From: Calditrichota bacterium
GTDB lineage: Bacteria; Electryoneota; RPQS01
Assembly: GCA_020637395.1 (NCBI GenBank)
Contig: JACJWA010000001.1
Location: 1,110,078-1,174,077, forward strand
Reading direction: 5' to 3'
DNA length: 64,000 nt
The position numbers and the translations under genes are program-made. A model generated the notes under the pieces. That model made no database searches. It worked only from the letters and a program-made list of their open reading frames with translations, and was not told the origin of the DNA. Numbering within the stretch: position 1 is the first letter of the stretch; each line of letters starts with the position of its first letter. Positions 2,851 to 59,681 of the stretch are shown in pieces.

Positions 2851-3756
2851 GTGAACGTGCTGGTTACGGGTGCGTCCGGTCTCTTGGGGGCCGCAGTTTG
2901 CCTGCGTCTTCAGAAAGGCGGCCATGTCGTTTGCGGAACTCACTTGAGTCATATTGGACCATTCCCATTTCCTTCCGCAAAGGTGGATTTGCGCGAAAGA
3001 GTGGATGTCGAGGCATTGGTCAAGTCTTTTGCGCCAGATGCTATTGTTCATGCGGCTGCGCTGTCCAAGGTTCTGGAGTGCCAGAGAAATCCAATCGAGG
3101 CACGACGGCACAATGTAGATGCGACCCGACATCTTGCGGAGTTGGCAAAGCAGTCGTCCTGCTACTTCTTGTACGTTTCAACGGACCAGGTGTTTTCCGG
3201 GAAGACGGGGATGCACACTGAATCGGAAGCTGTTTCACCGACGCATATCTACGGCGAATTGAAGGCCGAATGCGAAAAGCTACTTCAGAATCTGCTTGAA
3301 CGTCGCTTGATTCTTCGAAGTAATAACATCGTTGGAAGCAACAAAGGTTTCGGTAAGAGCTTCACGGATGGTGTGCTTGAATCCCTGCTTGCGGGCAAGT
3401 CAGTCGAACTGTTTGACGACCAGATTCGTTCTCCCATTCATCTTGATGTCATGTCAGAATTGATTCTGAGATGTGTCGAAGATGCCGTACAGGGAATCCT
3501 GCACGCGGGCGGTCCGGAGCGCCTCAGCAGGTATCAAACCGGACTCCAATTGGCGGAAGCCTTTGGGGGGGGCACTAATCGTATCCACCCGGTGTCGTTC
3601 AAGACTCATGCTGAGTCCGATGTCCTGCAATCTGATGGCAGTTTCGACACCACGAAATTCCGTGAGCTCTATCCTGATCTCGGCAACGAACGCATCTCCA
3701 CTGGATTTGAGCGGGATGCCAAGCGTGTGAAGGCAACACTTGAATCTCCAAGCTGA
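2851..3756 (+). CDS. NAD(P)-dependent sugar-nucleotide epimerase/reductase (RmlD-like)
   Basis: GTG start. N-terminal Rossmann motif VLVTGASGLLG. Length and overall similarity to dTDP-4-dehydrorhamnose reductase-like proteins. Contains a G8 tract. Confidence 0.65.
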   Translation: MNVLVTGASGLLGAAVCLRLQKGGHVVCGTHLSHIGPFPFPSAKVDLRERVDVEALVKSFAPDAIVHAAALSKVLECQRNPIEARRHNVDATRHLAELAKQSSCYFLYVSTDQVFSGKTGMHTESEAVSPTHIYGELKAECEKLLQNLLERRLILRSNNIVGSNKGFGKSFTDGVLESLLAGKSVELFDDQIRSPIHLDVMSELILRCVEDAVQGILHAGGPERLSRYQTGLQLAEAFGGGTNRIHPVSFKTHAESDVLQSDGSFDTTKFRELYPDLGNERISTGFERDAKRVKATLESPS

Positions 3757-4150
3757 ACTGATCCGAATTGAAACCGGCGCGCGTCTTCCAGATGCGTTGT
3801 GTACACTTGCGCGGTCTCGCGAATGGAGCTCTGCTGTTTGTTCAGGAATTGGCGGAGTGTCCGATGTTGAATTGGCATACTATGATTTGAGCACAAGGAA
3901 GTATTTGCCCTTTCCGGTGGATGGTATTGTTGAGTTGGTGTCCCTGCAGGGAAATCTATCCACGGTAGATGGAGAACCATTCTGGCATCTTCATGCTATT
4001 ATTGCGGATCGCGAAGGCCGCTGCTTTGGGGGACACCTGAACACATGCGTAGTAGCCTTGACTCTTGAGCTTGCCGTGTGGCCGATGCCGGAGTCTCGAT
4101 CCCGCGCTTTCGACGAAGACCTTGGACTGCGGCTGCTGATCAATGAGTGA
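3740..4150 (+). CDS. PPC/DUF296-domain protein
   Basis: 136 aa with the conserved PPC-domain core (GIGGVSDVELAYYD...LVSLQGNLS...PFWHLHA). Confidence 0.45.
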   Translation: MNLQAELIRIETGARLPDALCTLARSREWSSAVCSGIGGVSDVELAYYDLSTRKYLPFPVDGIVELVSLQGNLSTVDGEPFWHLHAIIADREGRCFGGHLNTCVVALTLELAVWPMPESRSRAFDEDLGLRLLINE

Positions 4151-4799
4151 CAAGAACATTTCGCGCGAACAGAAACACTTTGTCGCTATCGCGGGCAACA
4201 TCGGTGCCGGCAAGACCACGCTCGCCGAGCGGCTTGCAAGGCAGCTCGGCTGGAAATGCCATCTTGAGCCTGTCATTCAGAATCCCTATCTGAGTGACTT
4301 CTATGCTGACATGAGCAGATGGGCTTTCCATCTGCAGATCTACTTCTTGAGCAAACGATTTCAGAGCCAGCTTGAGATTGACAAGGACCCGGTTTCCTGT
4401 GTTCAGGACCGAACGATTTATGAAGATGCCGAGATATTCGCCCGCACTCTTCACAAACGGGGTGCGATGTCCGACCGGGAACTTGAAAACTACTTCGATC
4501 TGTTTGACTCCTTGATTGCGCATTTGAGACCGCCGGATCTGGTGGTTTACCTAAAGTGTGGTGTGGAGCAGCTACTAGAACGAATCAGCAAACGCGGAAG
4601 AAACTACGAAACCGGAATTGACCCCGAGTATCTTGAAGATTTGAACAACGCCTACGATCAGTGGGCGGAAAGCTATTCCGGTAAGCTCCTGATTGTCACC
4701 ATAGATACAATGGCAGAGGGCCGCGCCTTTGAACATGAAGTGTTTGAAGAGTGCATGCGACTGCTCCGTATGAACCTGCAACTGGAAATTGACTTCTGA
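4143..4799 (+). CDS. Deoxynucleoside kinase
   Basis: P-loop IAGNIGAGKTTL at the N-terminus. dNK family length and motifs (ERS-like, DR..YED). Confidence 0.75.
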   Translation: MSDKNISREQKHFVAIAGNIGAGKTTLAERLARQLGWKCHLEPVIQNPYLSDFYADMSRWAFHLQIYFLSKRFQSQLEIDKDPVSCVQDRTIYEDAEIFARTLHKRGAMSDRELENYFDLFDSLIAHLRPPDLVVYLKCGVEQLLERISKRGRNYETGIDPEYLEDLNNAYDQWAESYSGKLLIVTIDTMAEGRAFEHEVFEECMRLLRMNLQLEIDF

Positions 4800-7110: not shown

Positions 7111-8334
7111 ATGGTCTATCTGTTCCTCGCTTTTGCCGCATCCCTCCTATTCGCCGTCTGGGAGTACCTCCAGCACCAGAGGCGCGTTAACTCTATTCCC
7201 ATCCGCATACACGTGAACGGTACGCGCGGCAAGTCGTCAGTAACTCGACTGATTGCTGCGGGACTCCGTGCGGGCGGTATTCGCACGCTCGCCAAGACTA
7301 CCGGCACGCTGCCAAGAATTATTCACGCCGATGGGCTGGAAGTGCCCATTCAGCGTCGAAGCGGTGCGAATATTATTGAGCAGGTTAAGGTGTTCCGATA
7401 CTTCGCAAAGGAGAAACCTCAAGCAATCGTTATTGAGTGCATGGCGGTGAACCCCGAATATCAATGGATCTGCGAACACCGATTTGTCCGGGCGTCCGTG
7501 GGCGTGATCACCAACACTCGACTTGATCACATTCTTGAGATGGGGCCAACCCTTGAGAACGTTACGCGCTCTTTGTGCAACACTTTGCCGCCGCGAGGTG
7601 TAGCCTACACTGCCGAGCAAAACATGTTTTGGCTCATGCGAAAAGAAGCAGAGCGATCGGACTGTCGGCTCTGGCGAGTGAACTCGGAAAGCGTCTCGTA
7701 TCTCGAACTTGGACAGTTTTCCTACATAGAACATGCGGACAATGTCGCGCTCGCACTCGCGGTCTGCGAACACTATCATGTTCCCCGCGAAGTCGCTTTG
7801 GAAGGCATGTACAAAGCGTTTCCCGATCCCGGCGCACTAAAAGTGCTGGAAGCCGAAGAGAATGGCAAGGTCGTTCAGTTCATCAATGCGCTGGCAGCGA
7901 ACGATCCTATGTCCACTCTTGCCATCTGGCACAAAGTCAAGGACCTCTCAACTGAAGTTGGCACCGTGATCTTCATGCTGAACACGCGCGCTGATCGCTA
8001 TGACCGCACAATTCAGTTGCTCGAGATGATCCGCGACAATCTGACCGAAGAGTTCGACTATTTGCTTCTGAATGGAGAAAACCTTGACCGTGTCTATGGA
8101 AGTCTCCATGAGTACAACATTGATCCTGCCAAAGCAATTCGCATTGGTATGCAAGATCCATCCGAAACCTACAAAGCCGTGTTTGAACGCGTTTCCGACA
8201 TCGGAACCGTGTTTGCGATGGGGAATGTCGGCAAAGGCGGATTGAATGTCGCGACGTATTTCGCCAATCGCCGCCGTGTCCGCAAGGGAATGAATTCCAC
8301 AGCGCCCAATGAAATTCAGCAGCCGTCGCATTGA
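7111..8334 (+). CDS. pgsB: Poly-gamma-glutamate synthase PgsB/CapB (Mur-ligase-like amide ligase)
   Basis: IRIHVNGTRGKSSVTRL, ECMAVNPEYQ and AFPDPGALKV align with B. subtilis PgsB throughout its length. Confidence 0.85.
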   Translation: MVYLFLAFAASLLFAVWEYLQHQRRVNSIPIRIHVNGTRGKSSVTRLIAAGLRAGGIRTLAKTTGTLPRIIHADGLEVPIQRRSGANIIEQVKVFRYFAKEKPQAIVIECMAVNPEYQWICEHRFVRASVGVITNTRLDHILEMGPTLENVTRSLCNTLPPRGVAYTAEQNMFWLMRKEAERSDCRLWRVNSESVSYLELGQFSYIEHADNVALALAVCEHYHVPREVALEGMYKAFPDPGALKVLEAEENGKVVQFINALAANDPMSTLAIWHKVKDLSTEVGTVIFMLNTRADRYDRTIQLLEMIRDNLTEEFDYLLLNGENLDRVYGSLHEYNIDPAKAIRIGMQDPSETYKAVFERVSDIGTVFAMGNVGKGGLNVATYFANRRRVRKGMNSTAPNEIQQPSH

Positions 8335-8337
8335 CCT

Positions 8338-8793
8338 ATGATTGAGCTTACTATTGGCCTCGGCGTTCTGATCAGCCTCCTCTTTCATGAGGTGGTCGGC
8401 GCGGCTGCGGGCGGCATCGTCGTCCCGGGCTACATTGCCCTGCATCTGAATGACCCCGCGCGCATGCTGGGCACTTTTGCCGTGGCATTTGTGGCGTTCC
8501 TGTGCATTCGGGTTGTGTCGCGTTTCATGTTTGTGTATGGAAGACGACGCATGGTGCTGGCCATCATGTTCGGGTTCATTTTCGGCTACTTAAGCCGCAA
8601 CCTTGTTCTGAACGATGTCATGGTGGCGGATATCCGTCTCGAGGCAATCGGGTTCATTATCCCCGGGTTGATTGCGAACTGGTTCGAGCGACAGGGAATT
8701 GTCAAGACTATAGCCATGATGCTCATTGCTGCGCCCATTGTGAAACTCCTTGTGATGGTTCTGACGGGAGGCGAGATCTATCATGGCGTTTAG
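8338..8793 (+). CDS. pgsC: Poly-gamma-glutamate synthesis membrane protein PgsC/CapC
   Basis: 150-aa membrane protein. GIVVPGYIAL..., FVYGRRR and GFIIPGLIAN match PgsC. Confidence 0.8.
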   Translation: MIELTIGLGVLISLLFHEVVGAAAGGIVVPGYIALHLNDPARMLGTFAVAFVAFLCIRVVSRFMFVYGRRRMVLAIMFGFIFGYLSRNLVLNDVMVADIRLEAIGFIIPGLIANWFERQGIVKTIAMMLIAAPIVKLLVMVLTGGEIYHGV

Positions 8794-9904
8794 GCCCAGT
8801 CTGCGCTCTATTTGGACTCTGATCTCCATGGCAGTGGTGTGCTACGGATTGTACTTGTGGGCGGAGTATCAAGTGGTTGAAGTGAAGCAGCCACATTATG
8901 CCGAGAAGCTTGCTGCGGCGGAACTTGACAGCCGCGCCATGTTTTTGCTTGCATCAATCGAGTCGCGCGACATGGAGTCCCTGGAAAGTTACGGGGACGA
9001 GCGACTTGATGCCCTGATTGGACAGCAGTTCTCAACAATCACGACGGACATTGGCAGTTTCGAATCCAAACTGAACTGCCTTAACCCCAATTTTGCGGCG
9101 GCCGCCCTTGAGCTTCTGATTGGCGCGGGCCTCGAGAAAGGCGATCTTGTCGCGGTCGCACTGACCGGATCCAACCCGGGAGCAAATCTCGCGGTGCTCA
9201 GTGCGTGTCAGGTGTTAGGGCTCAAGGTGAATGTGATTACCTCCATCGGTTCAACCTGGTGGGGAGCGAACGATCCACACTTCACTTGGGTGGACATGCA
9301 GTCCGTGCTGCGGGACAAAAAGCTTCTCGACTTCACGCCGATTGCGGCTTCACGAGGCGGACTTGACGATCTCGCGACTGGACTTTCCGGTACCGGACGA
9401 GACGAGCTCGATGCTGCTGCCGCACGAAACGGCTTGAAAATGCTCTCTGCGACGTCCGCCGATCAAGCTGGTAAATTGTGGTGGGAAACGTTCAAAGCCG
9501 CCGCCCTCGGCGATCGGTACGCCGCCTATGTTAATGTTGGTGAAGGTGTCGCAAGCACCGGACACACAGAGAATGGCCGCCTTTTGAGCGACGGAGTGCA
9601 CCGCCGTCTGCCCAGCCGAAACTGGCCAGCGCGGGGGGCTTTGCACTTTGCCTCCGCCGAGGGCATCCCTGTCATTCACTTCTACGACATGACCCAAATC
9701 GCCCGCGAGTTTGGTTTGGGCACTCCGCGTATTCCACTTACCGAACCCGGTATCGGGGATGTCTTCACCACCGAGCGATATGATGTTCGAATTGCCTCTC
9801 TGGCACTCTTGCTCGCCGTCACCCTGCTTTTCATACTTGTTCGTATTGACGCGAAGTATTTCAGACTCGCGGATGCGGGCGTCGAACCAGAATCTTTGCT
9901 TTAG
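8783..9904 (+). CDS. Poly-gamma-glutamate system accessory protein (not CapA-like)
   Basis: Overlaps the pgsC stop. N-terminal TM helix. No CapA metallophosphatase motifs. Sits where pgsA would be. Confidence 0.4.
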   Translation: MAFRPSLRSIWTLISMAVVCYGLYLWAEYQVVEVKQPHYAEKLAAAELDSRAMFLLASIESRDMESLESYGDERLDALIGQQFSTITTDIGSFESKLNCLNPNFAAAALELLIGAGLEKGDLVAVALTGSNPGANLAVLSACQVLGLKVNVITSIGSTWWGANDPHFTWVDMQSVLRDKKLLDFTPIAASRGGLDDLATGLSGTGRDELDAAAARNGLKMLSATSADQAGKLWWETFKAAALGDRYAAYVNVGEGVASTGHTENGRLLSDGVHRRLPSRNWPARGALHFASAEGIPVIHFYDMTQIAREFGLGTPRIPLTEPGIGDVFTTERYDVRIASLALLLAVTLLFILVRIDAKYFRLADAGVEPESLL

Positions 9905-9925
9905 CACCGAAAACGAATCCTCATC

Positions 9926-10840
9926 ATGAAGCGATACATTGCCCTTCTTTTGTTCTCGCTTGGAGCTCTGTTCACGAATTCATTCGCGGACAATGGTTTC
10001 AAGTACCTGAAACCTGCTACCTATGATCAGGTGACCAAACTCACAGTCGCCGGAAAGTCGCGAACCTACTTCGTTCTCGAAGGAACGAATCAGATCGGCG
10101 CCGTGATAGAGGGACCGTCGCAGCTGAAAGTCATGTCCCGCGCGACCCTTGAAAAGTCCGACCAGCGTCCGGATTACTCTATTGAGGTGCTGCTTGAAGA
10201 AGGGAAGAAGCCGAGAACGATCCACCACACCAGCAAGCTCTCCGAGAAGGCCGACTTGCCGGACGGATCTACTGGGTACCTGGGTGTGCTGCGCTCAAAA
10301 GTGATTGACATTCCTTCCGGGAAGCACAATGTCATCTTGCGTTTGCCCGACGGTTCCAAGGACAAAGTGTATGTCAGGCTGTCGCAAAAAACGAATGAGT
10401 TCACCGGCGGAACTTCCGTGGTCGCGATGACGCCGTTCGAATATACAACTGCGGTTGATTTGGTGTCGAATGAAACGGCATACACCTACTATCGCGTCGG
10501 CGGCGAGGATCGGGTTGCGCTCAAACTGGTCGGTCCCGCAACTCTTAAAGTGCTCAGTCGTATTGAGTTCGGCCCGGAAATGAAGGGCAATCAGCGATGG
10601 AAGATCCAGTTGATGGAAGACGGCAATGCCAAGAAGACCTACAGTCTTGCCGCCAACAACAGCGACGTGATCCAGTATCGCCAGCCTTCGCAGTATGTCC
10701 CCAGCCGCGCCGAAACATTCTTTGTAGAGATTCCTTCCGGCGAACATGTTTACGAGTTCCGCTTGCCCGATGACCGCCGAACCACCTTACTGAGATTCCT
10801 GCTGCCTACTTCCGAATTGACAGGAGACGGATCAGAGTGA
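9926..10840 (+). CDS. Secreted tandem-domain protein
   Basis: Signal peptide. Two homologous ~120-aa halves ending IPSGKHNVILRLPDG and IPSGEHVYEFRLPDD. Confidence 0.5.
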   Translation: MKRYIALLLFSLGALFTNSFADNGFKYLKPATYDQVTKLTVAGKSRTYFVLEGTNQIGAVIEGPSQLKVMSRATLEKSDQRPDYSIEVLLEEGKKPRTIHHTSKLSEKADLPDGSTGYLGVLRSKVIDIPSGKHNVILRLPDGSKDKVYVRLSQKTNEFTGGTSVVAMTPFEYTTAVDLVSNETAYTYYRVGGEDRVALKLVGPATLKVLSRIEFGPEMKGNQRWKIQLMEDGNAKKTYSLAANNSDVIQYRQPSQYVPSRAETFFVEIPSGEHVYEFRLPDDRRTTLLRFLLPTSELTGDGSE

Positions 10841-11934
10841 AACGGGTCACGCTTTCACTTCTCTTCGGAGTGCTTCTGGTTTCAGCGCAGGCGAATGCTC
10901 GCCGTACGAGCTTCCCGACGTTGGACTGGGGGTTGCGAGTTGGAGTGAACGCGATTTACAATGACAATGTTCTGCGTCTGTCCGAAGCGGACGGGAATGC
11001 TTTTCACCGATTTGATCCGGGATTTCGGACTCCGTTGCAAACGCTTGATGACGGAGAAATGGAAATTCTGCTTGCTGCGTCTCTACAGTGGCGAGCACCC
11101 GCAACGACCATGGTCAATTTGAATTATCGGATCAAGGCCGTTCAGCGAGCGCAGAATAGTGTTACAGACTATCAGACCCACAGCCTAGGCGCAAGCATCA
11201 GACCTCGCGTCCGTGGATACAGATGGATTGCGCGGGGTAGCGTTTTCACTATTCCTTCGTTCTATTTGCGTGTGTATCGCGATCGCGACTTCGGCACATA
11301 TGATGATTGCCGCTTCGAGAACTGGGAGTACAACGGTGAGTTCTCCTATCGGATTGCTGAGCCGCTTTGGCTGAGCGCGATGGCAGGCTATGGCACCTAC
11401 TACTACGGTGCACGATTCACCGAGTACGACTCGGAATACAAAGAGTTTGGAGCGGAAGCGGAGTACACCACACGGTGGGATCCGCGACTGGCCTTTCGCT
11501 ACACGCGAAGAGTGTCCGACAATCTGGTTTCGACACAGTCTCTGAGTCTCGTGGATGAGACAGGTGCGCAGCTCCTGGAAGACTCTGAATACGGTGACGG
11601 CGACTTCAATGAAGATGAGTTTCGAGTTTCTCTGAAATCCAGAGTTAGAGCGCTTCACCCGCACACCGTGAATGCATCACTCGTCACACGCATCAGAAGA
11701 CGTGTCTATACGACAGACCGAACTCTTGAGGCAGACCCTTTCCACCGCGGAAGACTAGACACTCGCTGGGATGTTACGCCGACTCTGGACTGGAGTGTCA
11801 GTTCCGCGCTTGATGTCAGCCTGTTTTTTACCTATGAAGAACGCTCGACCGAATCGGACTATGAACCTCTCGCTCTCGTAAAAAACTTCGTCCGTCGTGA
11901 GGTAGGGCTGGGTTTCACGTACCGGATCAGATAA
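10837..11934 (+). CDS. Putative outer-membrane beta-barrel protein
   Basis: GTGA start/stop overlap with the upstream gene. Signal peptide (VLLVSAQANA). Alternating beta-strand pattern, Tyr/Arg-rich. Confidence 0.4.
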   Translation: MKRVTLSLLFGVLLVSAQANARRTSFPTLDWGLRVGVNAIYNDNVLRLSEADGNAFHRFDPGFRTPLQTLDDGEMEILLAASLQWRAPATTMVNLNYRIKAVQRAQNSVTDYQTHSLGASIRPRVRGYRWIARGSVFTIPSFYLRVYRDRDFGTYDDCRFENWEYNGEFSYRIAEPLWLSAMAGYGTYYYGARFTEYDSEYKEFGAEAEYTTRWDPRLAFRYTRRVSDNLVSTQSLSLVDETGAQLLEDSEYGDGDFNEDEFRVSLKSRVRALHPHTVNASLVTRIRRRVYTTDRTLEADPFHRGRLDTRWDVTPTLDWSVSSALDVSLFFTYEERSTESDYEPLALVKNFVRREVGLGFTYRIR

Positions 11935-11957
11935 CAGTTTCCCCCGAAAGAGAAAAG

Positions 11958-11999
11958 GAAACGGCCCTCGATCTGAGGGCCGTTTCTTGCTCTTGTTGT
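11958..11999. terminator. Bidirectional intrinsic terminator between convergent operons
   Basis: Perfect 12-bp inverted repeat GAAACGGCCCTC-gatct-GAGGGCCGTTTC followed by a T-rich tract. Lies between the + strand operon ending at 11934 and the - strand operon ending at 12010. Confidence 0.6.
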
Positions 12000-12009
12000 T
12001 TGCGATGAT

Positions 12010-13170
12010 TCACGCAAACTTTCGTTCTTTCCACGTCACTTCAGGCCTCGTAAACAATGCGCCGACGAGGCGCCAGGCATAGCCGCATGCAAACAAAGGA
12101 TAGGTCGCCGATGCGAGGAATAGTCCCTTCTTGCGGAGCTTGCCCAAGCATGCTGAAATCACCAGCCAGTCGCCAGTCAATACTGCAAGCGCAATCCACA
12201 GTCCCAGACGCCACGGCAGCAGAAGCGCGAAGGGCCAAAGAAGGTGAACGATCAGCTCAATCCCAAAGAATACTTTTCCGGATGCAGAAACGGCCTCCAT
12301 GCCTTCCATCCAACGATAGCGCTGAGTGACGATGGTCTTTGTTTTTGAAACAGGAAGAGTCGCTGCGGCGGAACCGGGGGTCACGGAAAACGCAACTTTC
12401 CATTTCTTGCTCTGCGCAATCGCCTTGAACAGGGCGATGTCGTCAATCCGATTATGCGGGATGCTTCTGAATGAGCCCACTTCGTGATAGGCTGTGCGGC
12501 GCACTGCATAGTTATTGCCGACCAGCGCAAGCGGAAAGCCGAGCCGGCACATTCCCGCGCACGCTCCCAGAAGCAGCGCCCAGTCCACCGTCTCAAGTTT
12601 GGTTACGGTGTCTGAAGTAAGGTCGTAGTCCGGTAGTGTGATTCCACATACCATGCCGATGCACGGCTCAAAATGGCGAACAATGTCCCGTGCCCAATCC
12701 GGCCGTAGCTCGCAATCACCGTCCGTCATGAGCACATAGTCACCCGTGGCAACGTCAATCCCCTGTGCGAGAGGCAAAGTCTTGGTGGGCGGGAGAGATT
12801 CCTCCGGGCCATGTACTGCAGGGATCACGCGCAGAGGAAAGGGAAGGGAACGTCCGAGGTTCTCGGCGATTTGCGCGGTGCCATCCGTCGAGTCGTCATT
12901 AACAAGAATCAGCTCAATCTTGTCTGCGGGATAGTTGAGCTTGCGCAGAGACCCAAAAAGCCGCGGAAGGTTGTGAGCCTCATTGCGCGCCGGGACAACG
13001 ATGGAAATCAGCGGCAGTTCCGATTGACGCGGCGCGCGCTTCAACAATGCGAGAGACGCCAGCGCTGCGGCGCTAAGATGAAAAGCGCCGACAACAGCAG
13101 CAATCCCCGCCGGAATCACGCGACCTCCCGACGTTTCGACGACTCTTCTGGAAGCAACAGCAGACGCCAA
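12010..13170 (-). CDS. Family 2 glycosyltransferase
   Basis: IVVPARNEAHNL...VNDDSTDGT and TDGDCE (DxD) motifs. N-terminal TM region. Confidence 0.7.
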   Translation of the reverse strand: MASAVASRRVVETSGGRVIPAGIAAVVGAFHLSAAALASLALLKRAPRQSELPLISIVVPARNEAHNLPRLFGSLRKLNYPADKIELILVNDDSTDGTAQIAENLGRSLPFPLRVIPAVHGPEESLPPTKTLPLAQGIDVATGDYVLMTDGDCELRPDWARDIVRHFEPCIGMVCGITLPDYDLTSDTVTKLETVDWALLLGACAGMCRLGFPLALVGNNYAVRRTAYHEVGSFRSIPHNRIDDIALFKAIAQSKKWKVAFSVTPGSAAATLPVSKTKTIVTQRYRWMEGMEAVSASGKVFFGIELIVHLLWPFALLLPWRLGLWIALAVLTGDWLVISACLGKLRKKGLFLASATYPLFACGYAWRLVGALFTRPEVTWKERKFA

Positions 13171-13769
13171 TTGCGACGAGTGATTTCGCTCCGAATATGT
13201 TCAAGCACCGGCCGCAGAGTCACAGCACATCCCGGTTTGTCATGAAGAAGCAAAATCATTCGGTCGTGAAAGTTATTCTGAGCGACTCGCAACAAGTCCC
13301 CGGCGGTTCTCATTCGCCAGTCTGAAAGGTGAGCGGACCAAAGTACTGGACTCAGTCCCATCCGCCGGGCAAGACGGCCCGTCCGCCAGTCCAATGAGCC
13401 GTATGGCGGTCGGAACGCAGGTGCCATCGTTGCGCATCCACGGGACTCAATCGCGGCGCGTGTGCGCATCAAACTCTCAGTCACAAACTCTTTCGATTGA
13501 AATGCGTGACGACGATGAACGTATCCATGATTTGCCACGGCATGTCCCGCCGAGACAATCTTACTCAAGAGCTCCTGATTTCTCTCGCATGCTTCGCCAA
13601 CCAGAAACATCGTACACTTGAGGTCCAATTCACTTAGCAGCTGCAACAGTTCGGGAGTGGAGTCCGGATTGGGACCGTCGTCAAAGGTGACCGCAATCGA
13701 GCCGTCTTCAGTAGTGCGAGACTGCCAGCCCGGGATCGCCCGAGGAATCCACTGACTCAAAGGGATCAT
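13116..13769 (-). CDS. Polysaccharide deacetylase (NodB/CE4)
   Basis: TFDDGP...FLVG...HGYVHRRH CE4 motifs. Start moved to the ATG at 13769, which forms an ATGA overlap with the upstream gene's stop. Confidence 0.7.
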   Translation of the reverse strand: MIPLSQWIPRAIPGWQSRTTEDGSIAVTFDDGPNPDSTPELLQLLSELDLKCTMFLVGEACERNQELLSKIVSAGHAVANHGYVHRRHAFQSKEFVTESLMRTRAAIESRGCATMAPAFRPPYGSLDWRTGRLARRMGLSPVLWSAHLSDWRMRTAGDLLRVAQNNFHDRMILLLHDKPGCAVTLRPVLEHIRSEITRRNWRLLLLPEESSKRREVA

Positions 13770-15022
13770 TGCTTCTCTGCCAGCGAAACTGGTTGGCGCG
13801 AGGGTTTCGAATCGCCGCGCAGCCGCAGCCACTTCGGACGGAGAGCTTTGGGCAATGTTGCCGTGCGGTACCAATCTCCCTTCCAACGATAGGGCAGGAG
13901 CAGACCCGCGAGACCAAAGCAGGGAGTGGTCAAAGTGTGCCAAAACTCATACTCTGGAAAGTAGGGCAACAGACGTTCTTGTCTAAACACTCGAGATCCG
14001 GTGATTACAAGCACGGCATCCACCGCAAGCTTAAGTCCCCACACCGCTGCGGCAGCCGAAATCAGAGTGTTACCAAGCACTGCGAGCACAGGTAATACAA
14101 GAAGCAGCAGGTAGTAGAAGTAGATTGCGAACAGGAAGAACAGCATGCTTCCCCGATAACTTAGACCTTTTGAAGCCCAGCGAAGCCGCTGCTGAAACAA
14201 CCCGCGAATTGTGGTCACGGGTAGTGAGCGCACCAGAGTTTCTTGCGTGGTGGCAAACACCATCTTCCAAGTTGTGGACTGTGCCACGCGCTGCGCAAAC
14301 AACACATCGTCCCCGGACACTACGGAAGCACCGGCGCCAAAGCCCTCAATGCTTTCATAGACTTCGCGGCGATAGCAGAGATTGCTGCCGTTGCAGCTTG
14401 CCGCGTGCCCCCAGCCCAGGGATCCCGCCGCCAGAAAATTCTGCACGAAGAAGTCCAGCCATTGAATCTTCTGCCAGCGAGGCACAGAAGCATAATCGGG
14501 CAAATCAAAGACTGTGAGTCCCGCCACAACTCCCACACCTTCCGTCAGATGCGCCACCATGCCGCGCAACCAATTATCGTGGTACTGACAGTCGGCGTCC
14601 GTCGTGAGAATGACCTCTGAGTCGGATGCCGCGATTCCTGCAGCGAGTGCGCGCTTTTTGGGTGACCCTGTGCTCTGTTCTTCGATACGAAGAGAACGCA
14701 GACCTGAATACTTCGCACACAGTTCTGCGAGAACTGTCGGTGTGTTATCCTCACTGCGATCATCCACAACAATCACTTCCCACTTCCCGGGGTAGTTCTG
14801 CCTCATCAGCGAATCGAGGGTCCACGGCAATACCTCCGCTTCATTTCGGGCGGGCATGACGACGCAAACGCTCGGCCAAGAGTCGGGTGCCGCGGACTTG
14901 TTTCGCCGCAGACGTCTTAAGCCAATCGCAAAAACCAGCATGATCACGGCATACACCGCGGTCAGCCCTGCGACAACCACAAGAAGTGCGCTTACAAGTC
15001 CGGTCAGCTTCGGGATCTCCAT
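13766..15022 (-). CDS. Processive GT2 polysaccharide synthase (PgaC/IcaA-like)
   Basis: VVMPARNE, DDRSEDNT, TDADCQ and the QRLRWASKG (QxxRW) motif. Multiple TM helices. Start trimmed to MEIPKL. Confidence 0.7.
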   Translation of the reverse strand: MEIPKLTGLVSALLVVVAGLTAVYAVIMLVFAIGLRRLRRNKSAAPDSWPSVCVVMPARNEAEVLPWTLDSLMRQNYPGKWEVIVVDDRSEDNTPTVLAELCAKYSGLRSLRIEEQSTGSPKKRALAAGIAASDSEVILTTDADCQYHDNWLRGMVAHLTEGVGVVAGLTVFDLPDYASVPRWQKIQWLDFFVQNFLAAGSLGWGHAASCNGSNLCYRREVYESIEGFGAGASVVSGDDVLFAQRVAQSTTWKMVFATTQETLVRSLPVTTIRGLFQQRLRWASKGLSYRGSMLFFLFAIYFYYLLLLVLPVLAVLGNTLISAAAAVWGLKLAVDAVLVITGSRVFRQERLLPYFPEYEFWHTLTTPCFGLAGLLLPYRWKGDWYRTATLPKALRPKWLRLRGDSKPSRQPVSLAEKQ

Positions 15023-16017
15023 TGTCGAGGTAAGGCAAAGATGCGCTTCACGTGAATCAAACCAATCGCTGCAGGCAACGCGACATTCAAAGCAAACAGC
15101 AGAAGGGATGCGGCAATCGCCTGCGAGTCGGGTACGCCAAGTCCCCGCAAACAGAGCATCGCTGTCCATTCGCCCACGCCCAAGCTGCCAAGTGTGAGCG
15201 GGATATTCCCTTTCAAGAAGAAGTTCAAGTGCACCGCCAGCAAACCCGCAAGGAGCGGCACTTCGACTCCCAATGCGCCCAGCATGAGAATGAACTGAAG
15301 GAGAGATACTAAGAGAGAGGCGATGGCCAAGAACAGATAGAGTGCTGCGCTCCGGGTCTGAATCCCCTGTGCAGCTTCAAGAGATGTCACAAGCCCTGCC
15401 GCACGAACCCTAATTTGCAGAACCCCCCGGATCAGCTTTGCAATTCTGCCGGGAACCAATCCCACGCATAGCAATAGAGTCCCCAGCAAGGATAACAGAA
15501 TTGATACTCCGCCGCTCCAAAACAACCACTCTGTTTTCCACCCGAGATACGGCAGTATCCCCAAAGCAATCAAGCCAAACCCGTTGACGGTAATCGCGCT
15601 GTAAAGTCTTTCCGCTACCGTAAGAACGGAAGCTTTGCCCAACGGCACGTTGGTTAGAAACAACCCCCGACCATAGGCACCAACACGACCGGGCGTGATG
15701 AAACCAAGCGTGTGACCCAGCCAATAGCTTGCCCGGATGTCGCTTTCGAGCACGTTTTCCCCCGCGCGCTTCGCGAGCAGTTTCCAGCGCAGATATTGAA
15801 GGTATTGATTGGGAATCCAAAGCAGAATGACGGCAAGAAGCTCGCGCCCACCAACGAAAGAAAGTCCGTTGGAAATCCCCTTCCAATCCAGGCGCCGATA
15901 CAGTAAGTAAAGCAGCGCAAGAGAGAGCGAGACTTTTAGAAAGAAGGCGACATGCCGCTTCCAACCACTCCCGTTGGCGAGATTTCCCATACCGTAATCG
16001 GAAACCGGAACACTCAT
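15004..16017 (-). CDS. Flippase-like membrane protein (lysylphosphatidylglycerol-synthase TM-domain family)
   Basis: Polytopic and rich in Gly/Leu. Family assignment is from overall pattern only. Start trimmed to an ATGA overlap with the upstream stop. Confidence 0.45.
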   Translation of the reverse strand: MSVPVSDYGMGNLANGSGWKRHVAFFLKVSLSLALLYLLYRRLDWKGISNGLSFVGGRELLAVILLWIPNQYLQYLRWKLLAKRAGENVLESDIRASYWLGHTLGFITPGRVGAYGRGLFLTNVPLGKASVLTVAERLYSAITVNGFGLIALGILPYLGWKTEWLFWSGGVSILLSLLGTLLLCVGLVPGRIAKLIRGVLQIRVRAAGLVTSLEAAQGIQTRSAALYLFLAIASLLVSLLQFILMLGALGVEVPLLAGLLAVHLNFFLKGNIPLTLGSLGVGEWTAMLCLRGLGVPDSQAIAASLLLFALNVALPAAIGLIHVKRIFALPRQWRSRS

Positions 16018-17183
16018 GAAGCTTTGGTGACCGTATTCAAGTTTCTCGCTGATTCGAACTGCCTTCCGCGCCAAATGTAGCGCCCACGGAATACATGCGC
16101 AAACACACGCCAGACGAGCCAAATCGGGAGGAATAAGGATCCTGCAAGTACTCCTGGCGGAGTGATGTCGAGTTTCATTCGACGGGAGAACCATACTCCC
16201 GCAGCAGTGTCCAGCGCAACCTTGACTATTGTCGCAGCAGCGAGAATCGAGCAGCTCGGAAAAATCAAGGGCGACAAAAGCAGGGGATAGCTCAGCACTC
16301 CGACGAGCGAAGTCCAGGCGAACAGCAGCCGCCAGCGGATGGGATAGAATCGAGTTACGCTCTGATGCCGCGCCGCTTGAGACAACCTTGAACCGCGTGC
16401 GCCGTGATCCGTGACAACGCTTTCCGGAGAGTCGCAGAACACGACTCTCCAGCCCGTGCGTGCAATGGCCTGCACCGTCAAATCGTCATCGCCTGACGGT
16501 AGGTCCCGCCGAACAGGCGCTCCGACGTCTTCAATCGCTTGTCGCCGATAGAGTATGCTGTGTCCGCATGCCGAAGCTGGAAATCCCCACCCACAGGCCG
16601 AGGCCATCGAGATGTTGGCGATCAGTCGCTCCCATCGGTAGGTTTCCGGAACTCCGGTAGGAGGCCAAGAGGCACCGAGAACTGCTCCACAAGAATCGTC
16701 AGAATTTGCGATCAAGGATGACAGCCAGTCTGCAGGAACAGCGCAGTCTGCATCCGTTACTGCTATCCATTGTGTGTCAATCCGCGAAAATGCGAATGCC
16801 AAAGCCTCTTTTTTCGGACTGTGGCACAGGCCGCGGTCCACAGGGTTCGCGCTTACTTCGAGACATTGATTAGCCACTGCAAGCTGCTCGGCTATCTCCT
16901 TGGTTCGGTCGCTCGAGTCGTCATCTATGAACCGCACGACCTTCGGAAACAGGTGAGTCTGCGCCAGCACTGACTCAAGGCATAGACCCACGGTTTGCTG
17001 TTCATTTCTGCCCACAACTGCAATCCCGATCGAACTACCATCCGTTGCGACTTGAGCCACCCAACGCCCGGATTTCGCCCGCCACAGCAGTAGCCCTGTA
17101 ACCAAGAGTACGGAAGGCAGTACAACAAACAGCACTCCGAATGCAAGAAGCCAATCAGGTGGATGGTTCCAAGTCAGCATCAT
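16014..17183 (-). CDS. Family 2 glycosyltransferase
   Basis: N-terminal TM helix. IAVVGRNE...IDDDSSDRT and TDADC motifs. Confidence 0.7.
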   Translation of the reverse strand: MMLTWNHPPDWLLAFGVLFVVLPSVLLVTGLLLWRAKSGRWVAQVATDGSSIGIAVVGRNEQQTVGLCLESVLAQTHLFPKVVRFIDDDSSDRTKEIAEQLAVANQCLEVSANPVDRGLCHSPKKEALAFAFSRIDTQWIAVTDADCAVPADWLSSLIANSDDSCGAVLGASWPPTGVPETYRWERLIANISMASACGWGFPASACGHSILYRRQAIEDVGAPVRRDLPSGDDDLTVQAIARTGWRVVFCDSPESVVTDHGARGSRLSQAARHQSVTRFYPIRWRLLFAWTSLVGVLSYPLLLSPLIFPSCSILAAATIVKVALDTAAGVWFSRRMKLDITPPGVLAGSLFLPIWLVWRVFAHVFRGRYIWRGRQFESARNLNTVTKAS

Positions 17184-33381: not shown

Positions 33382-33455
33382 GCCCCCGTAGCTCAGTGGA
33401 TAGAGCACCGGCCTCCGGAGCCGGGAGCATGGGTTCGAGTCCCGTCGGGGGCGCA
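33382..33455 (+). tRNA. tRNA-Arg (anticodon CCG)
   Basis: Cloverleaf folded by hand: acceptor GCCCCCG/CGGGGGC, D-arm GCTC/GAGC, anticodon stem CCGGC/GCCGG with loop CTCCGGA, T-arm ATGGG-TTCGAGT-CCCGT. Confidence 0.85.
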
Positions 33456-48844: not shown

Positions 48845-50342
48845 GTTTCTCGTATTCTGCACATTCCTTCTGCTTGCCGTTCCAGCGTGGGCGCAGCTTG
48901 AAGATATTGAACTGGATGGCTCCAACCAGCTTCGATTTGACGACGGCAGAGAAGTGGATACACAACGCGCCGGGCTGGAGCATCCTGACAATACGATTCG
49001 CCGCCATTTCATTGAGAACAGACTGTTGCTTAACTTGTTCAGTGGCGATTTTCATTTGGGTGGGCGGTTTCTTTATTTTCGTCCGGCTGAAGCGGACGTT
49101 GATCAGTTCAGGCTGGCGGACGAAAACCGTTTTGACAAGCGCTTCTTCGAAGGCAAGATTGCCCCGTTCGATTTCAGATTCGGGCACTTCAGCGATCTTT
49201 GGGGATCAGGGCTCGTCTTCAGCGCGTTTGAAAACCGAGATCTCTACTTCGACTCGGAACTGGACGGCGCACGCGTACAGTTGAATGCCGGTTCAATAAA
49301 GCTGATCGGCGCAACGGGCACGACGGAAGATGGTCCACTGGTGCCAGAGATGAAGGCGACCGCCGGACGAGTTGAGCTATCTCCCGGCAAGGGAAGAAGG
49401 CTGGGATTCAGCTATGTCTATCATGACAGCTTGTCCAATCCTGAGATGGGCGTCGCCGGTGTGGACTGGAACATCACTCGGGGTATTCTGAATCTCTACG
49501 GAGAGCGCGCATGGAATGAGGCCGTCCTGGCGGGAGGCAATAGTGCCGGCCACGCCACTTTCGCGGGATTGACTCTCTCGAAGTGGGGATGGTCCCTGCT
49601 TGCGGAGTATGCGGACTACGACTACCGTATCAATACCCCGATTCAGAATCCGCCAACGACACATCGTGAAGTCGGACCGCGCCTGCTTCAGGGCAGAGAG
49701 CCGCATGTGCTGAACATTGCCGATGAAGTCGGAGTGCAGGTTGAATTGAACGGAAGTGTCGGTGAAAACACCTATGTCACTGCGCACTACAACGCAAGCA
49801 GCCGGCACAGTGACGAAGACGAGTCAGTGCCTTTGCCCGCGCTCGAGGAAAAGTATCGTCCGTATTGGGAGGTGTTTGCCAATGCCGACCACACCTTCGG
49901 CGGTGGAGAGATACTAATTCTTGAAGTCGGTGCAAATGAAGAAGCTGCTGTCGTCTGGCAAGAGCGCAAGTGGGGACAGGTGCGCTTCAAGTTTCATATT
50001 CGCGGCGACCAAGAGCTTGAGCTTGAGACGGAACAACTGCTGATCACCGACCGCACCCGTGATGATGAGAAGTTTCACGACATGCTTTACGGCGTCTCGT
50101 GGGTGCCTTCGCATATCCTTTCCCTTAATGCTTCGGTTCAGTTCACAGACGATGAAGAATTGAAGAAGCGTGAGGGAGAGTTCTGGGCTGGCGGTGAAGT
50201 TGCTATGCAGCTTGCGGGCGGCAAGCATCGCGCGATTCTCTTCTATGGAAGCGAGCGCGGCGGACTCAAGTGCTCGAACGGAGTTTGCAGGCAGGTACAA
50301 GCATTCTCAGGTCTGCGATTCACTCTGGAAACGTCGCTCTAA
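48837..50342 (+). CDS. Putative outer-membrane beta-barrel protein
   Basis: GTG start overlapping the upstream stop. Signal peptide VPAWA. Long amphipathic beta-strand pattern. Confidence 0.4.
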   Translation: MTKFLVFCTFLLLAVPAWAQLEDIELDGSNQLRFDDGREVDTQRAGLEHPDNTIRRHFIENRLLLNLFSGDFHLGGRFLYFRPAEADVDQFRLADENRFDKRFFEGKIAPFDFRFGHFSDLWGSGLVFSAFENRDLYFDSELDGARVQLNAGSIKLIGATGTTEDGPLVPEMKATAGRVELSPGKGRRLGFSYVYHDSLSNPEMGVAGVDWNITRGILNLYGERAWNEAVLAGGNSAGHATFAGLTLSKWGWSLLAEYADYDYRINTPIQNPPTTHREVGPRLLQGREPHVLNIADEVGVQVELNGSVGENTYVTAHYNASSRHSDEDESVPLPALEEKYRPYWEVFANADHTFGGGEILILEVGANEEAAVVWQERKWGQVRFKFHIRGDQELELETEQLLITDRTRDDEKFHDMLYGVSWVPSHILSLNASVQFTDDEELKKREGEFWAGGEVAMQLAGGKHRAILFYGSERGGLKCSNGVCRQVQAFSGLRFTLETSL

Positions 50343-50344
50343 TC

Positions 50345-51739
50345 ATGCCGCGGAGTTCTGATCCGCGCAGTCAGCTGCCCGGTGTGGATCGCTTGCTCGA
50401 GAACCCGCGACTTGCGGAGCTTAGAAAACTTGTTTCTACGCCCAATCTGACGCGGGTGCTTCGCGAGATACTCAGCGAATGTCGTCGGGACTTGGAAAAA
50501 GACAAGAGTGTTCCGGCAGACGAGATTCTGGTCGAGCGTGCAGTAATACGAATTGAAGCGACGATGCACGCCGGTCCTCGCCGCGTTATCAATGCGACCG
50601 GAGTGATTCTCCATACTGGCCTTGGCAGAGCGCCGCTTTCTGACGCCGCTCGAAAGGCCGTTGCCGAGGCCGCAGGCTATTGTGACTTGGAGTTCGATCT
50701 GGACTCCGGAGCTCGCGGAGACCGCCAGGATCATGTAGAGCGCTTGCTTTGTTGTGCCACGGGAGCCGAGTCGGCTCTGGTGGTGAACAACAATGCCGCC
50801 GCTTTGTACCTTGTTTTAGCGGTGCTGGGGTTTCGCAAAGAGGTGATTGTTTCCCGCGGCCAGTTGATTGAAATCGGTGGAAGCTTCAGACTCCCGGAGA
50901 TCATGGCGCGGTCCGGGTGCAAGCTCGTGGAAGTGGGAACCACGAATCGCACACGTATCTCCGATTTTGCGTCCGCAGTTACGGACAAGTCCGCCATGCT
51001 ATTGCGCGCTTATCCGTCCAACTATCGTATTGACGGATTCACGGAGTCCGTTGAGATTTCCGAGCTCGCGGACGTCGCGCGCAAAAACAATCTCATCTGC
51101 GTGGATGACCTCGGCGGTGGACTGCTTTGGGACTGGACATCGTGGGGACTGCCCGAAGAGCCCAATGTCGAGCAAAGCTTGCGAGGAGGAGCTGATCTTG
51201 TTCTGGTATCAGGGGACAAGGTCATCGGCGGACCACAGGCTGGTTTAATCCTCGGCAAAGCCTCGCTCGTCGCAAAGCTCAAGAAGTCTCCTTTGGCCCG
51301 AGTTCTGCGCCCTGGGAAGCTTGAGATTGCTGCGCTTGCAGCAACGGTTGCTGGTTTTTTGCATCATGAGCGGCCCCCAGTCGAAAATCTTTCCTGGCAG
51401 ATGCTCACGGAAACGCCGGAAGTGACTCGTACAAGAGCCGAAGGTCTCTGCGAGAAGATTCGTTCGTTATCGGACTGGCAGATTCTTGAAGTGATTCAGT
51501 CTCCCGCTCAAGCCGGATCGGGAACCCTGCCGGCGGTCGGACTTGAGTCAAGCGCGGTCAAACTGCTTCCGCAGAGACATACCGCCGCCTCATGGGCCAA
51601 GCGGCTTCGCACGGCAACCATTCCTATCGTTCCGGTCGTGCAGGAGGGCGCTGTCCTCATGAACATGCGCACGGTTAGCGATAACGAGATACCGGATATT
51701 GTGTCCGTAATTGGTGACCTGTTGATTTCCCGAAAGTGA
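50345..51739 (+). CDS. selA: L-seryl-tRNA(Sec) selenium transferase
   Basis: N-terminal LPGVDRLL and the PLP-lysine region SGDKVIGGPQAG. Start trimmed to the ATG after the upstream stop. Confidence 0.85.
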   Translation: MPRSSDPRSQLPGVDRLLENPRLAELRKLVSTPNLTRVLREILSECRRDLEKDKSVPADEILVERAVIRIEATMHAGPRRVINATGVILHTGLGRAPLSDAARKAVAEAAGYCDLEFDLDSGARGDRQDHVERLLCCATGAESALVVNNNAAALYLVLAVLGFRKEVIVSRGQLIEIGGSFRLPEIMARSGCKLVEVGTTNRTRISDFASAVTDKSAMLLRAYPSNYRIDGFTESVEISELADVARKNNLICVDDLGGGLLWDWTSWGLPEEPNVEQSLRGGADLVLVSGDKVIGGPQAGLILGKASLVAKLKKSPLARVLRPGKLEIAALAATVAGFLHHERPPVENLSWQMLTETPEVTRTRAEGLCEKIRSLSDWQILEVIQSPAQAGSGTLPAVGLESSAVKLLPQRHTAASWAKRLRTATIPIVPVVQEGAVLMNMRTVSDNEIPDIVSVIGDLLISRK

Positions 51740-58155: not shown

Positions 58156-59681
58156 AACGAATCATTCTCGCGATTCTTGATGGATACGGCCTTGCACCGG
58201 CTGGCCCTCACAATGCGGTCACACTTGCAAGGACCCCGTTCTTAGACAAGCTGTGGCGTGAGTCACCAAATTCTACCCTCATTACTTCGGGTGAAGAGGT
58301 TGGATTGCCCGCAGGGCAAATGGGAAACAGCGAAGTCGGCCATCTGAATATCGGCGCCGGTCGTGTCGTCTATCAGGACATCACTCGAATTGACTTGTCC
58401 ATCAGGAAGCACGAGTTTCACGAGAATTCAACTCTGTTGGACTTGCTGGACAGACTCAAGAAGTCTGGAGCGACGCTGCATCTTATGGGATTGGTCAGCG
58501 ACGGCGGAGTACATTCGTCTCTCAATCATGTGCGGGCAATTCTTGAGACCTGCAAGGAACAAGCCTTTGATCGTGTCGTCGTCCACGCTTTCACAGATGG
58601 CAGAGATACTCCACCGCATTCAGGCAGACAGCACCTGAGCACACTTCAGGAATGGATGCACAAGCTCAAGGTTGGTCGAATCGGAACGGTTGTCGGACGT
58701 TACTATGCTATGGACCGGGACAATCGCTGGGAACGCGTTGAACGAGCGTACCGCGCACTATGTTTTGGCGAGGGCAAAGCTGCGGTTGACATTGATGTCG
58801 CAATGTCTGAATCTTATTCTGATGGAATCACGGACGAGTTCGTGCTTCCAATAGTGATGCATCCTGAATATCCTCGTCTGCGAGTGAGCTCATCCGACGG
58901 CGTGCTCTTCTTCAATTTTCGAGCGGATCGCACCAGGCAGTTGACGCAGGCTTTGACCAATACTGGATTTTCTGCGTTCGATGCTCCCATGAAAGTTGAC
59001 GATTACGTCACCATGACCAAGTATCACGAAGAGTACACCTTTCCCGTACTCTTTGCGCCACAACCGCTAACAGGTATTCTTGGACAAGTTCTTTCGGAGA
59101 ACGGACTGAAACAGCTCAGAATTGCAGAGACGGAGAAATACCCGCACGTCACCTTTTTCTTCAATGGAGGTGATGACCAGCCATTTCCCCTCGAAGAACG
59201 CATTCTTGTTCCCTCACCAAAAGTCGCCACGTATGATCTTCAGCCTGAAATGAGCGAACCAGAAGTTACGAGGAAACTCTGCGAGGCAATTCGTTCCCAA
59301 TCGTTTGATTTCATCTGTGTAAACTTTGCAAACTGTGACATGGTTGGTCACACCGGTGTCCTTGAAGCGGCGATCCAAGCCGTCCAGACCGCAAATCACG
59401 GTGCGCAGGAGATGTGCACTGCCGCCAAGGAATACGGCTATGCAGTTTTGATTACGGCGGATCACGGAAACGCGGAGCAGATGTGGGATGAAAAGACGAA
59501 TGGCCCACATACGGCTCATACTACAAATCCTGTTCGCGTGGCTCTCTTTAACGCAGCGGATGAGTTTCGCCTGAGAGATGGCGGCGTCCTGGGCGATCTT
59601 GCCCCGACAATTCTGGAGTATATGGGCATCCCGAAGTCCCCTGAAATGTCCGGCACGTCACTGCTTGTCAATTCGAAGTGA
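58152..59681 (+). CDS. gpmI: 2,3-bisphosphoglycerate-independent phosphoglycerate mutase
   Basis: ILDGYG...NSEVGHLN N-terminal motifs. 509 aa. Confidence 0.9.
   Translation: MKRIILAILDGYGLAPAGPHNAVTLARTPFLDKLWRESPNSTLITSGEEVGLPAGQMGNSEVGHLNIGAGRVVYQDITRIDLSIRKHEFHENSTLLDLLDRLKKSGATLHLMGLVSDGGVHSSLNHVRAILETCKEQAFDRVVVHAFTDGRDTPPHSGRQHLSTLQEWMHKLKVGRIGTVVGRYYAMDRDNRWERVERAYRALCFGEGKAAVDIDVAMSESYSDGITDEFVLPIVMHPEYPRLRVSSSDGVLFFNFRADRTRQLTQALTNTGFSAFDAPMKVDDYVTMTKYHEEYTFPVLFAPQPLTGILGQVLSENGLKQLRIAETEKYPHVTFFFNGGDDQPFPLEERILVPSPKVATYDLQPEMSEPEVTRKLCEAIRSQSFDFICVNFANCDMVGHTGVLEAAIQAVQTANHGAQEMCTAAKEYGYAVLITADHGNAEQMWDEKTNGPHTAHTTNPVRVALFNAADEFRLRDGGVLGDLAPTILEYMGIPKSPEMSGTSLLVNSK

Follow-up and report, generated by a model that had tools for sequence, protein, structure and literature searches.

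In two described bacterial operons a glycosyltransferase (GT), a deacetylase and a lipid flippase are encoded together. HexSDF of Clostridioides difficile makes aminohexosyl-hexosyl-diradylglycerol, with a build-up of the acetylated intermediate when HexD is missing (PMC10128005), while GpgSDF of Pseudomonas aeruginosa makes GlcNAc-phosphatidylglycerol and then GlcN-phosphatidylglycerol by way of a cytoplasmic deacetylase (PMC12713373). In archaea, PF03706 genes typically occur within the triad of GT, deacetylase and stand-alone MprF-like flippase, and in AglD a GT2 is fused to PF03706 (PMC5898192). Here we analyze a stretch of 64,000 nucleotides (the window) from a Calditrichota metagenome-assembled genome (MAG), in which a 5.2-kb operon on the minus strand, at positions 12010–17183, shares two traits with HexSDF and GpgSDF: a stand-alone protein consisting of the MprF flippase domain (PF03706/COG0392), and a de-N-acetylase in the same operon. 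Around these it carries three membrane GT2 glycosyltransferases. By analogy with the two systems, we judge it probable on balance, with limited confidence, that, at the cytoplasmic side of the membrane, the operon builds a glycolipid or lipid-linked oligosaccharide containing glucosamine, which would then be flipped outward.

The range 12010–17183 is filled exactly by five co-directional open reading frames (ORFs), as stated in a preliminary description of this DNA, whose family calls are upheld by Pfam. In the order of transcription these are a membrane GT2 (GT2-A, 16014–17183; PF00535, 68 bits, with transmembrane-like segments), a flippase-like membrane protein of the MprF type (337 amino acids, 15004–16017; PF03706, LPG_synthase_TM, also known as PplT or UPF0104), a central membrane GT2 (GT2-B, 418 amino acids, 13766–15022), a CE4 polysaccharide deacetylase with NodB homology (217 amino acids, 13116–13769; PF01522), and a last membrane GT2 (GT2-C, 12010–13119; PF00535, 74 bits). 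Reading the sequence directly, we found that all four junctions overlap. Three had been noted before: ATGA at 16014/16017 between GT2-A and the flippase gene, 19 nt between the flippase gene (stop at 15004) and GT2-B (ATG at 15022), and ATGA at 13766/13769 between GT2-B and the CE4 gene. The fourth, missing from the earlier list, is a GTGA at 13116/13119 between the CE4 gene and GT2-C. It is preceded by GGGAGG, a Shine-Dalgarno-like site, which makes GTG 13119 the likely start of GT2-C and gives a protein of 369 amino acids; the orthologue in L001, the closest syntenic relative, has 370. Two other starts are backed by identical database proteins (P0001, 418 amino acids, for GT2-B; P0121, 337 amino acids, for the flippase), and the predicted starts also match the gene lengths in L001. 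GT2-A may alternatively start at GTG 17135.

Because the genes overlap at every junction, there is no room in the operon for a further gene such as PgaD/IcaD, and none of the five proteins matched that family in the Pfam scan. The same scan found no porin, tetratricopeptide repeat (TPR) export protein, Wzx/Wzy, Wza/Wzc or priming phosphoglycosyltransferase in the operon, which is bounded by ligA and by a poly-gamma-glutamate (Pgs) unit, and the strand of the operon encodes no porin or TPR protein. Control of the operon by a riboswitch or by cyclic di-GMP (c-di-GMP) was considered and rejected, as an Rfam scan of the window returned a tRNA-Arg alone and no riboswitch or c-di-GMP control element. 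A sigma-70 scan upstream of the operon gave nothing convincing.

In the pathway that we favor, the three paralogous GT2s, embedded in the membrane and of a minimal architecture resembling either cellulose synthase or ceramide glucosyltransferase, would act sequentially and non-processively. At least one of them would add an N-acetylhexosamine, presumably from UDP-GlcNAc, to a membrane lipid acceptor; the cytoplasmic CE4 enzyme would then strip the N-acetyl group to bare a free amine, and the MprF-type PplT protein would carry the head group, once complete, across to the outer leaflet. We infer here the acceptor (which may be diacylglycerol, phosphatidylglycerol, polyprenyl phosphate or another lipid), which sugars are used, in what order the steps proceed and in which direction the lipid is flipped. 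Sequential lipid glycosylation is the best-supported reading in view of four features taken together: the cytoplasmic deacetylase, the small number of hydrophobic helices in the GT2s, the presence of three distinct transferases, and the lack of export or polymerization machinery.

The flippase-like protein matches PF03706 with 84.9 bits (cutoff 33.4) and contains no aminoacyl-phosphatidylglycerol synthase domain according to Pfam. Its AlphaFold2 (AF2) model has a mean confidence (pLDDT) of 81.9, and in a Foldseek search of the Protein Data Bank (PDB) the top five matches were all MprF, with query-normalized template-modeling scores (TMq) of 0.48–0.61; all others scored about 0.2 or less. The link to MprF comes from Pfam and from the fold, as phmmer and profile searches of the PDB returned no solved MprF by sequence, and tblastn against plasmids gave no match. 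With the PF03706 match and with MprF as the only structural neighbor, the protein is predicted to be an MprF-type lipid translocase and not a Wzx-type flippase. The earlier label of a membrane flippase-like protein thus stands, although a lipid translocase of this type is alien to the synthase-dependent poly-N-acetylglucosamine (PNAG) systems with which the operon had been grouped. MprF is a lipid flippase/scramblase (PMC11980842), and PF03706 proteins have been proposed as general lipid translocases (bioRxiv 10.1101/2022.03.11.483950).

The deacetylase matches PF01522 with 98.2 bits, and its CE4 motifs (TFDDGP, HGYVH, RPPYG, DW and LLLHD) align with those of the solved CE4 enzymes 7y51 and 2c1g. 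The catalytic His and Asp residues, whose loss had been named beforehand as a ground for abandoning the preliminary interpretation, are therefore intact. The protein is a bare NodB domain, with no signal peptide, transmembrane helix or other hydrophobic segment, and is predicted from this to be cytoplasmic and to act before export. Most of the 27 orthologues in which the motif is visible likewise have no hydrophobic N-terminus, with mostly 18–40 residues ahead of TFDDG. Its joint-best NCBIfam matches are PdaB (96.2 bits) and NodB (95.5 bits), and a BLASTP comparison with PgaB gave no significant similarity (E = 0.31).

GT2-A, GT2-B and GT2-C are paralogous, with pairwise identities of about 29%. 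In each, an N-terminal transmembrane segment precedes a GT-A domain that contains DxD and the catalytic Asp, and hydrophobic helices follow at the C-terminus; the three differ in their motifs: DAD, GDD and QAARH (replacing QxxRW) in GT2-A; DAD, GDD and QQRLRW in GT2-B, with a conserved WKG at the C-terminus; DGD, IDD and QRYRW in GT2-C. The AF2 model of GT2-B (pLDDT 91.9) shows one N-terminal helix, the GT-A domain, interface helices and, in the C-terminal part, two strongly hydrophobic helices and a third that is less so. By sequence, profile and fold alike, the best solved relative of GT2-B is the archaeal mannosyltransferase PcManGT (6yv7, ~21% identity), an enzyme of minimal cellulose-synthase fold. 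Next after it in Foldseek come hyaluronan synthase (HAS) and BcsA, with TMq values of 0.55–0.66 (up to 0.66 for HAS, ~0.6 for BcsA). In a profile search of the PDB, GT2-B gave full-length matches to ceramide glucosyltransferase at 50.3 bits, in an alignment spanning positions 7–344, and to BcsA at 49.9 bits. The attempt to separate processive from non-processive GT2s by fold and profile thus ended in a tie between BcsA and ceramide glucosyltransferase. QxxRW is no hallmark of processivity either, since ceramide glucosyltransferase has the motif too.

Family models place GT2-B in none of the curated groups: its NCBIfam scores were 91 bits for HpnB, 78 for HpnI, 73 for PgaC_IcaA and 50.7 for NodC, all far below cutoff. 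That the two best are the lipid-directed HpnB and HpnI fits lipid glycosylation by GT2-B. Among the best matches of the GT2s are ceramide glucosyltransferase, HpnB/HpnI and PcManGT, and BcsA and HAS match about equally well. For PgaC_IcaA (TIGR03937, cutoff 422.3 bits), GT2-C and GT2-A scored 61.6 and 19.7 bits.

To see how widely the module occurs, we scanned one genome per species, which gave at least 594 proteins related to the central GT2. For the best 80, the ORFs of each locus, with up to 10 kb of flank, were compared with the window proteins by BLASTP. These loci come from Ignavibacteriae, Bacteroidota, KSB1, Latescibacterota, Gemmatimonadota, Fibrobacteria, Calditrichota and relatives. 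In L001, a close relative at 67% identity, the gene order is that of the window. The flippase gene was found in 37 of the 80 loci and the CE4 gene in 27; 14 loci carry both together with three or more GT2s, usually in the order of the window. Given the order kept in L001 and these 14 loci, the arrangement is, on this comparison of gene content, not due to chance, and the order GT2-flippase-GT2-CE4-GT2 recurs among phyla of the FCB (Fibrobacteres, Chlorobi and Bacteroidetes) group.

The three GT2 positions form distinct orthologue groups, each with its own version of the motif. The upstream GT2 has QxxRH in 11 of the 12 loci in which the motif is detectable, across phyla; the middle GT2 has QxxRW in 16 of 16; and the downstream GT2 has QxxRW in 13 loci and QxxRY in five. 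A distinct motif per position fits three different transfers rather than one homopolymer synthase, and the QxxRH signature might mark a GT2 that acts on a non-sugar (lipid) acceptor. In one KSB1 genome (L012), glmS, the gene for glutamine-fructose-6-phosphate aminotransferase, is located directly upstream of the module (2855–4687), an adjacency that fits a demand for amino sugars.

Relatives add genes to the module that the window does not have: radical S-adenosylmethionine (SAM)/SPASM enzymes, a SAM methyltransferase, a GT28-like protein, Wzi homologues and a PHP-like protein of ~540 amino acids. In other phyla, the related GT2 genes are interleaved with accessory genes, in L003 and L004 (8001–11398), L005 (1457–2473 and 4962–5978), L006 (11166–12266), L011 (6543–8496) and L012 (8330–9952 and 12166–13362), the interleaved genes comprising radical SAM/SPASM enzymes, SAM methyltransferase and Wzi capsule-assembly homologues. 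In Latescibacterota and Gemmatimonadota there is a recurrent trio of GT2, radical SAM/SPASM enzyme and GT2. The ~540-amino-acid protein is encoded downstream of the module, often after the GT28-like gene (L006 15232–16857, L011 12405–14036, L020 12840–14468 and at least seven further loci); it is 36–55% identical between phyla, has no Pfam match and no homologue in the window, and contains DAHTHS...TDH motifs reminiscent of PHP phosphoesterases. We considered it as a GT-C partner of the module and rejected it, the protein being soluble and PHP-like. In L026 (3793–7355) the module is flanked by two divergent genes for MsbA-like ABC half-transporters; in L028 and L055, ORFs match these genes in size and position. 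An apparent fusion of flippase and GT2 in L002 (P0046, 682 amino acids, 8001–10049) was also set aside as a sign that the two proteins are functionally coupled, because ligA, efp and accC are likewise split or mis-fused there; it is probably a frameshift artifact of the assembly.

Several observations weigh against the lipid pathway. The known systems of GT, deacetylase and flippase use GT4- or GT28-type transferases, not GT2, and the single apparent GT2-flippase fusion is, as just described, unreliable. The GT2 fold, as modeled, is common to the processive synthases HAS and BcsA; in sequence, QxxRW, GDD and the C-terminal WKG resemble synthase motifs, with a possible likeness to the gating loop, and the alignment of GT2-B with Escherichia coli PgaC is highly significant across the GT-A domain. 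About half of the related loci are GT2 pairs without flippase or CE4 gene in the flank compared, so the flippase is not obligatory for this GT2 family. Finally, a Wzi homologue lies inside or beside the GT2 genes in L003 and L012, which hints at a surface polysaccharide.

Such a polysaccharide is what the preliminary description proposed when it called GT2-B a PgaC/IcaA-like processive synthase and took its pairing with a NodB-type deacetylase as the hallmark of partially de-N-acetylated poly-GlcNAc. In that reading GT2-B, perhaps as a hetero-oligomer with GT2-A and GT2-C, would polymerize a GlcNAc-containing chain, partly de-N-acetylated to a PNAG- or chitosan-like product, with the PF03706 protein as translocation partner. 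The homology to PgaC is real: tblastn gave matches to pgaC/hmsR, and an hhalign comparison with the E. coli protein gave E = 3.8e-23 at 28% identity. It covers columns 44–287, however, which is the GT-A domain through QxxRW only, and GT2-B shows no similarity to PgaC beyond that domain, while its PgaC_IcaA score of 73 bits (vs. a cutoff of 422) lies under those for HpnB and HpnI and its fold is nearest to PcManGT. GT2-B thus forms no specific group with PgaC/IcaA, its profile being equally far from ceramide glucosyltransferase and BcsA. The resemblance of its fold to HAS and BcsA, the presence of QxxRW and GDD, the intact CE4 motifs, the Wzi homologues beside related GT2 genes in some relatives and the position of the operon beside a poly-gamma-glutamate unit in this lineage would all suit a matrix polysaccharide. 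Each GT2 has only three strongly hydrophobic helices, and, judging from BcsA and HAS, three do not suffice to make a glycan channel on their own. The Pfam and Rfam scans found no PgaD/IcaD, porin, TPR export protein or c-di-GMP module, the deacetylase is predicted to be cytoplasmic and is related to PgaB only through CE4 membership, no function other than lipid translocation is known for PF03706 proteins, and a homopolymer does not need three conserved, distinct orthologue groups of GT2. The PNAG reading of the operon is therefore weakly supported, and we regard a synthase-dependent exopolysaccharide as unlikely; the earlier caution that the product should be more complex than PNAG was well placed.

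The adjacency of the GT2-B and CE4 genes, with their ATGA overlap, and the joint-best match of the CE4 protein to NodB also recall the NodC/NodB pair, in which case GT2-B would make short chito-oligosaccharides in the cytoplasm, the CE4 enzyme would de-acetylate the non-reducing end and the other GT2s would decorate a soluble or lipid-modified signal for export. NodC and NodB are similar in size and location to GT2-B and the cytoplasmic CE4 protein. Both family models fall well short (NodC, TIGR04242, 50.7 vs. 550 bits; NodB, TIGR04243, 95.5 vs. 240 bits), Pfam finds no NodA-like acyltransferase or NodIJ-type exporter in the operon, and a lipid flippase and two further conserved membrane GT2s would be left without a role, so we consider this proposal very improbable. 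The logic of the operon (GT2, then CE4-type de-acylase, then flippase) matches that of a polyprenyl-phosphate donor pathway as in ArnC/ArnD/ArnEF-ArnT or Bordetella Lgm, with GlcNAc charged onto undecaprenyl phosphate by a GT2, de-acetylated by the CE4 enzyme and moved to the periplasmic face by the flippase; GT2-PF03706 fusions of the AglD type do charge dolichyl phosphate (PMC5898192). The GT2s here are nevertheless not of the ArnC, dolichyl-phosphate mannose synthase (DPMS) or GtrB type: the ArnC model (NF007986) gave 29.1 bits against a cutoff of 529, profile matches to ArnC, GtrB and DPMS in the PDB span the first half of the GT-A domain only, their TM-scores in the fold search are ~0.34, and three GT2s are superfluous for a monosaccharide donor. 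We hold such a donor to be improbable. We judge its final step in much the same way, namely the placing of GlcN on lipid A or another envelope acceptor by a GT-C enzyme encoded elsewhere: the window does contain a PMT_2 (GT-C) gene at 59678–60826, but it lies 43 kb off, and there is no GT-C gene in or beside the operon or in the relatives examined.

The comparison with described pathways also shows where an amino-sugar lipid pathway in this lineage would depart from them. HexSDF, likened here by its published description, is similarly an operon of GT, CE4-type deacetylase and stand-alone MprF-like (PF03706-type) flippase, but HexS is annotated as MGDG-synthase/MurG-like rather than as a membrane GT2, a single transferase takes the place of three, and the host is Gram-positive with two-component control (PMC10128005). 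GpgSDF likewise joins a GT, a cytoplasmic deacetylase that appears to act before flipping, and a UPF0104/COG0392 flippase; it differs in that GpgS is a soluble GT4, GpgD belongs to COG3233 and not to the canonical PF01522 CE4 family, and a single transferase adds a single sugar (PMC12713373). Relative to both, the module described here has membrane GT2s of the cellulose-synthase/ceramide-glucosyltransferase fold, three transferases and a spread through diderm FCB-group phyla. PcManGT and ceramide glucosyltransferase share with its GT2s the N-terminal transmembrane helix, the GT-A domain, the interface helices and the few C-terminal helices, although they act on other acceptors and neither is encoded with a CE4 enzyme and a flippase.

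PgaABCD/IcaADBC have in common with the operon a GT2 with DxD, catalytic Asp and QxxRW whose homology to PgaC spans the GT-A domain, and a CE4-family deacetylase alongside; they differ in that the operon contains no PgaC/IcaA equivalog, PgaD/IcaD, extracytoplasmic deacetylase or PgaA porin, and adds two GT2s and a lipid flippase. From the hopanoid glucosamine pathway (HpnI/HpnK) it is set apart by the HpnI score (TIGR03472, 78 vs. 310 bits) and by a deacetylase that is CE4 and not YdjC-type. In the ArnC/ArnD/ArnEF route and in the de-N-acetylation of GlcNAc-phosphatidylinositol for glycosylphosphatidylinositol (GPI) anchors, a sugar is put on a lipid at the cytoplasmic face, the amine is de-acylated and the lipid is flipped. 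These routes use other GT and flippase families, and the operon here lacks a gene for a GT-C transferase that would act downstream. Judged by these comparisons, the operon does not belong to PgaABCD/IcaADBC, NodBC, HpnI/K or ArnCDT. A literature search for a module of flippase-like protein (PF03706/UPF0104), polysaccharide deacetylase and GT2 found no characterization.

The operon converges on a genuine poly-gamma-glutamate locus, as the preliminary description had recognized: PgsB (410 vs. a cutoff of 223 bits), PgsC (120 vs. 96) and the TIGR04332 “poly-gamma-glutamate system protein” (241 vs. 100) all score above their curated cutoffs. This unit occupies 7111–11934 on the plus strand, with five genes, and is kept whole in L001. 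No protein in it matched the CapA/PgsA family in the Pfam scan. PgsB, PgsC and the TIGR04332 protein are followed by proteins of 304 and 365 amino acids with hydrophobic, signal-peptide-like N-termini and no family match, the last of which has, on visual inspection, the look of an outer-membrane beta-barrel. Between the two convergent units lies a GC-rich hairpin at 11956–11988, of 12–15 bp (15 pairs on the plus strand and 12 on the minus strand, eight of them G-C), which scores as terminator-like on both strands in a hairpin scan, in agreement with the shared terminator predicted before.

The further suggestion that the two units make up a matrix island of ~10 kb found no support. The G+C content of the operon (0.55–0.56) is that of the remainder of the window (0.51–0.57), its flanks are housekeeping genes, and the Pgs unit adjoins the module in the close relative L001 alone; the 80 loci from more distant genomes all lack this neighbor. 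A horizontal origin of the supposed island was rejected on the first two of these grounds, and operon and Pgs unit are a lineage-specific adjacency within the core genome.

Apart from the operon, the 64 kb contain no long block on the minus strand; ~53 other ORFs lie on the plus strand, and GC skew is negative only within the operon. L001 has the same inverted orientation, so this is not a recent inversion. The PMT_2 gene mentioned above stands beside a gene for a Wzx-type Polysacc_synt flippase in a stretch (59678–62288, plus strand) with a very strong AT skew of -0.27. A separate locus for surface glycans may begin here, 43 kb away from the operon. SelA and SelB are encoded at 50270–51739 and 56269–58155 on the plus strand, from which the organism probably uses selenocysteine. 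The sole tRNA in the window is a tRNA-Arg(CCG) at 33382–33454, and not tRNA-Sec.

The distribution of the module allows the amino-sugar lipid reading to be extended to a pathway of the FCB superphylum, in which three lipid-directed, non-processive GT2s of the cellulose-synthase fold would make a cationic oligoglycosyl envelope lipid containing glucosamine, a new class of glycolipid of the membrane or outer membrane of bacteria with new enzymology for the fold; this is speculative and, in our estimate, rather unlikely. The same holds for the tailoring of that lipid by the radical SAM/SPASM, methyltransferase and PHP-like enzymes of the relatives, a role we would grant them only tentatively. Still more novel would be a new kind of glycan export machine, made up of the three minimal synthases and the MprF-type protein.

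Hundreds of MAG proteins in the GT2-B family are currently labeled “cellulose synthase/PNAG synthase-like.” If the operon does direct the synthesis of an amino-sugar lipid, what has been predicted about biofilm matrices in Calditrichota, KSB1, Ignavibacteria, Bacteroidota and their relatives would have to be revised. The recently discovered logic of GT, deacetylase and flippase, which in pathogens makes the surface charge less negative and gives resistance to cationic antibiotics, would extend to diderm environmental phyla, and minimal GT2s of the cellulose-synthase fold would be lipid glycosyltransferases in bacteria.

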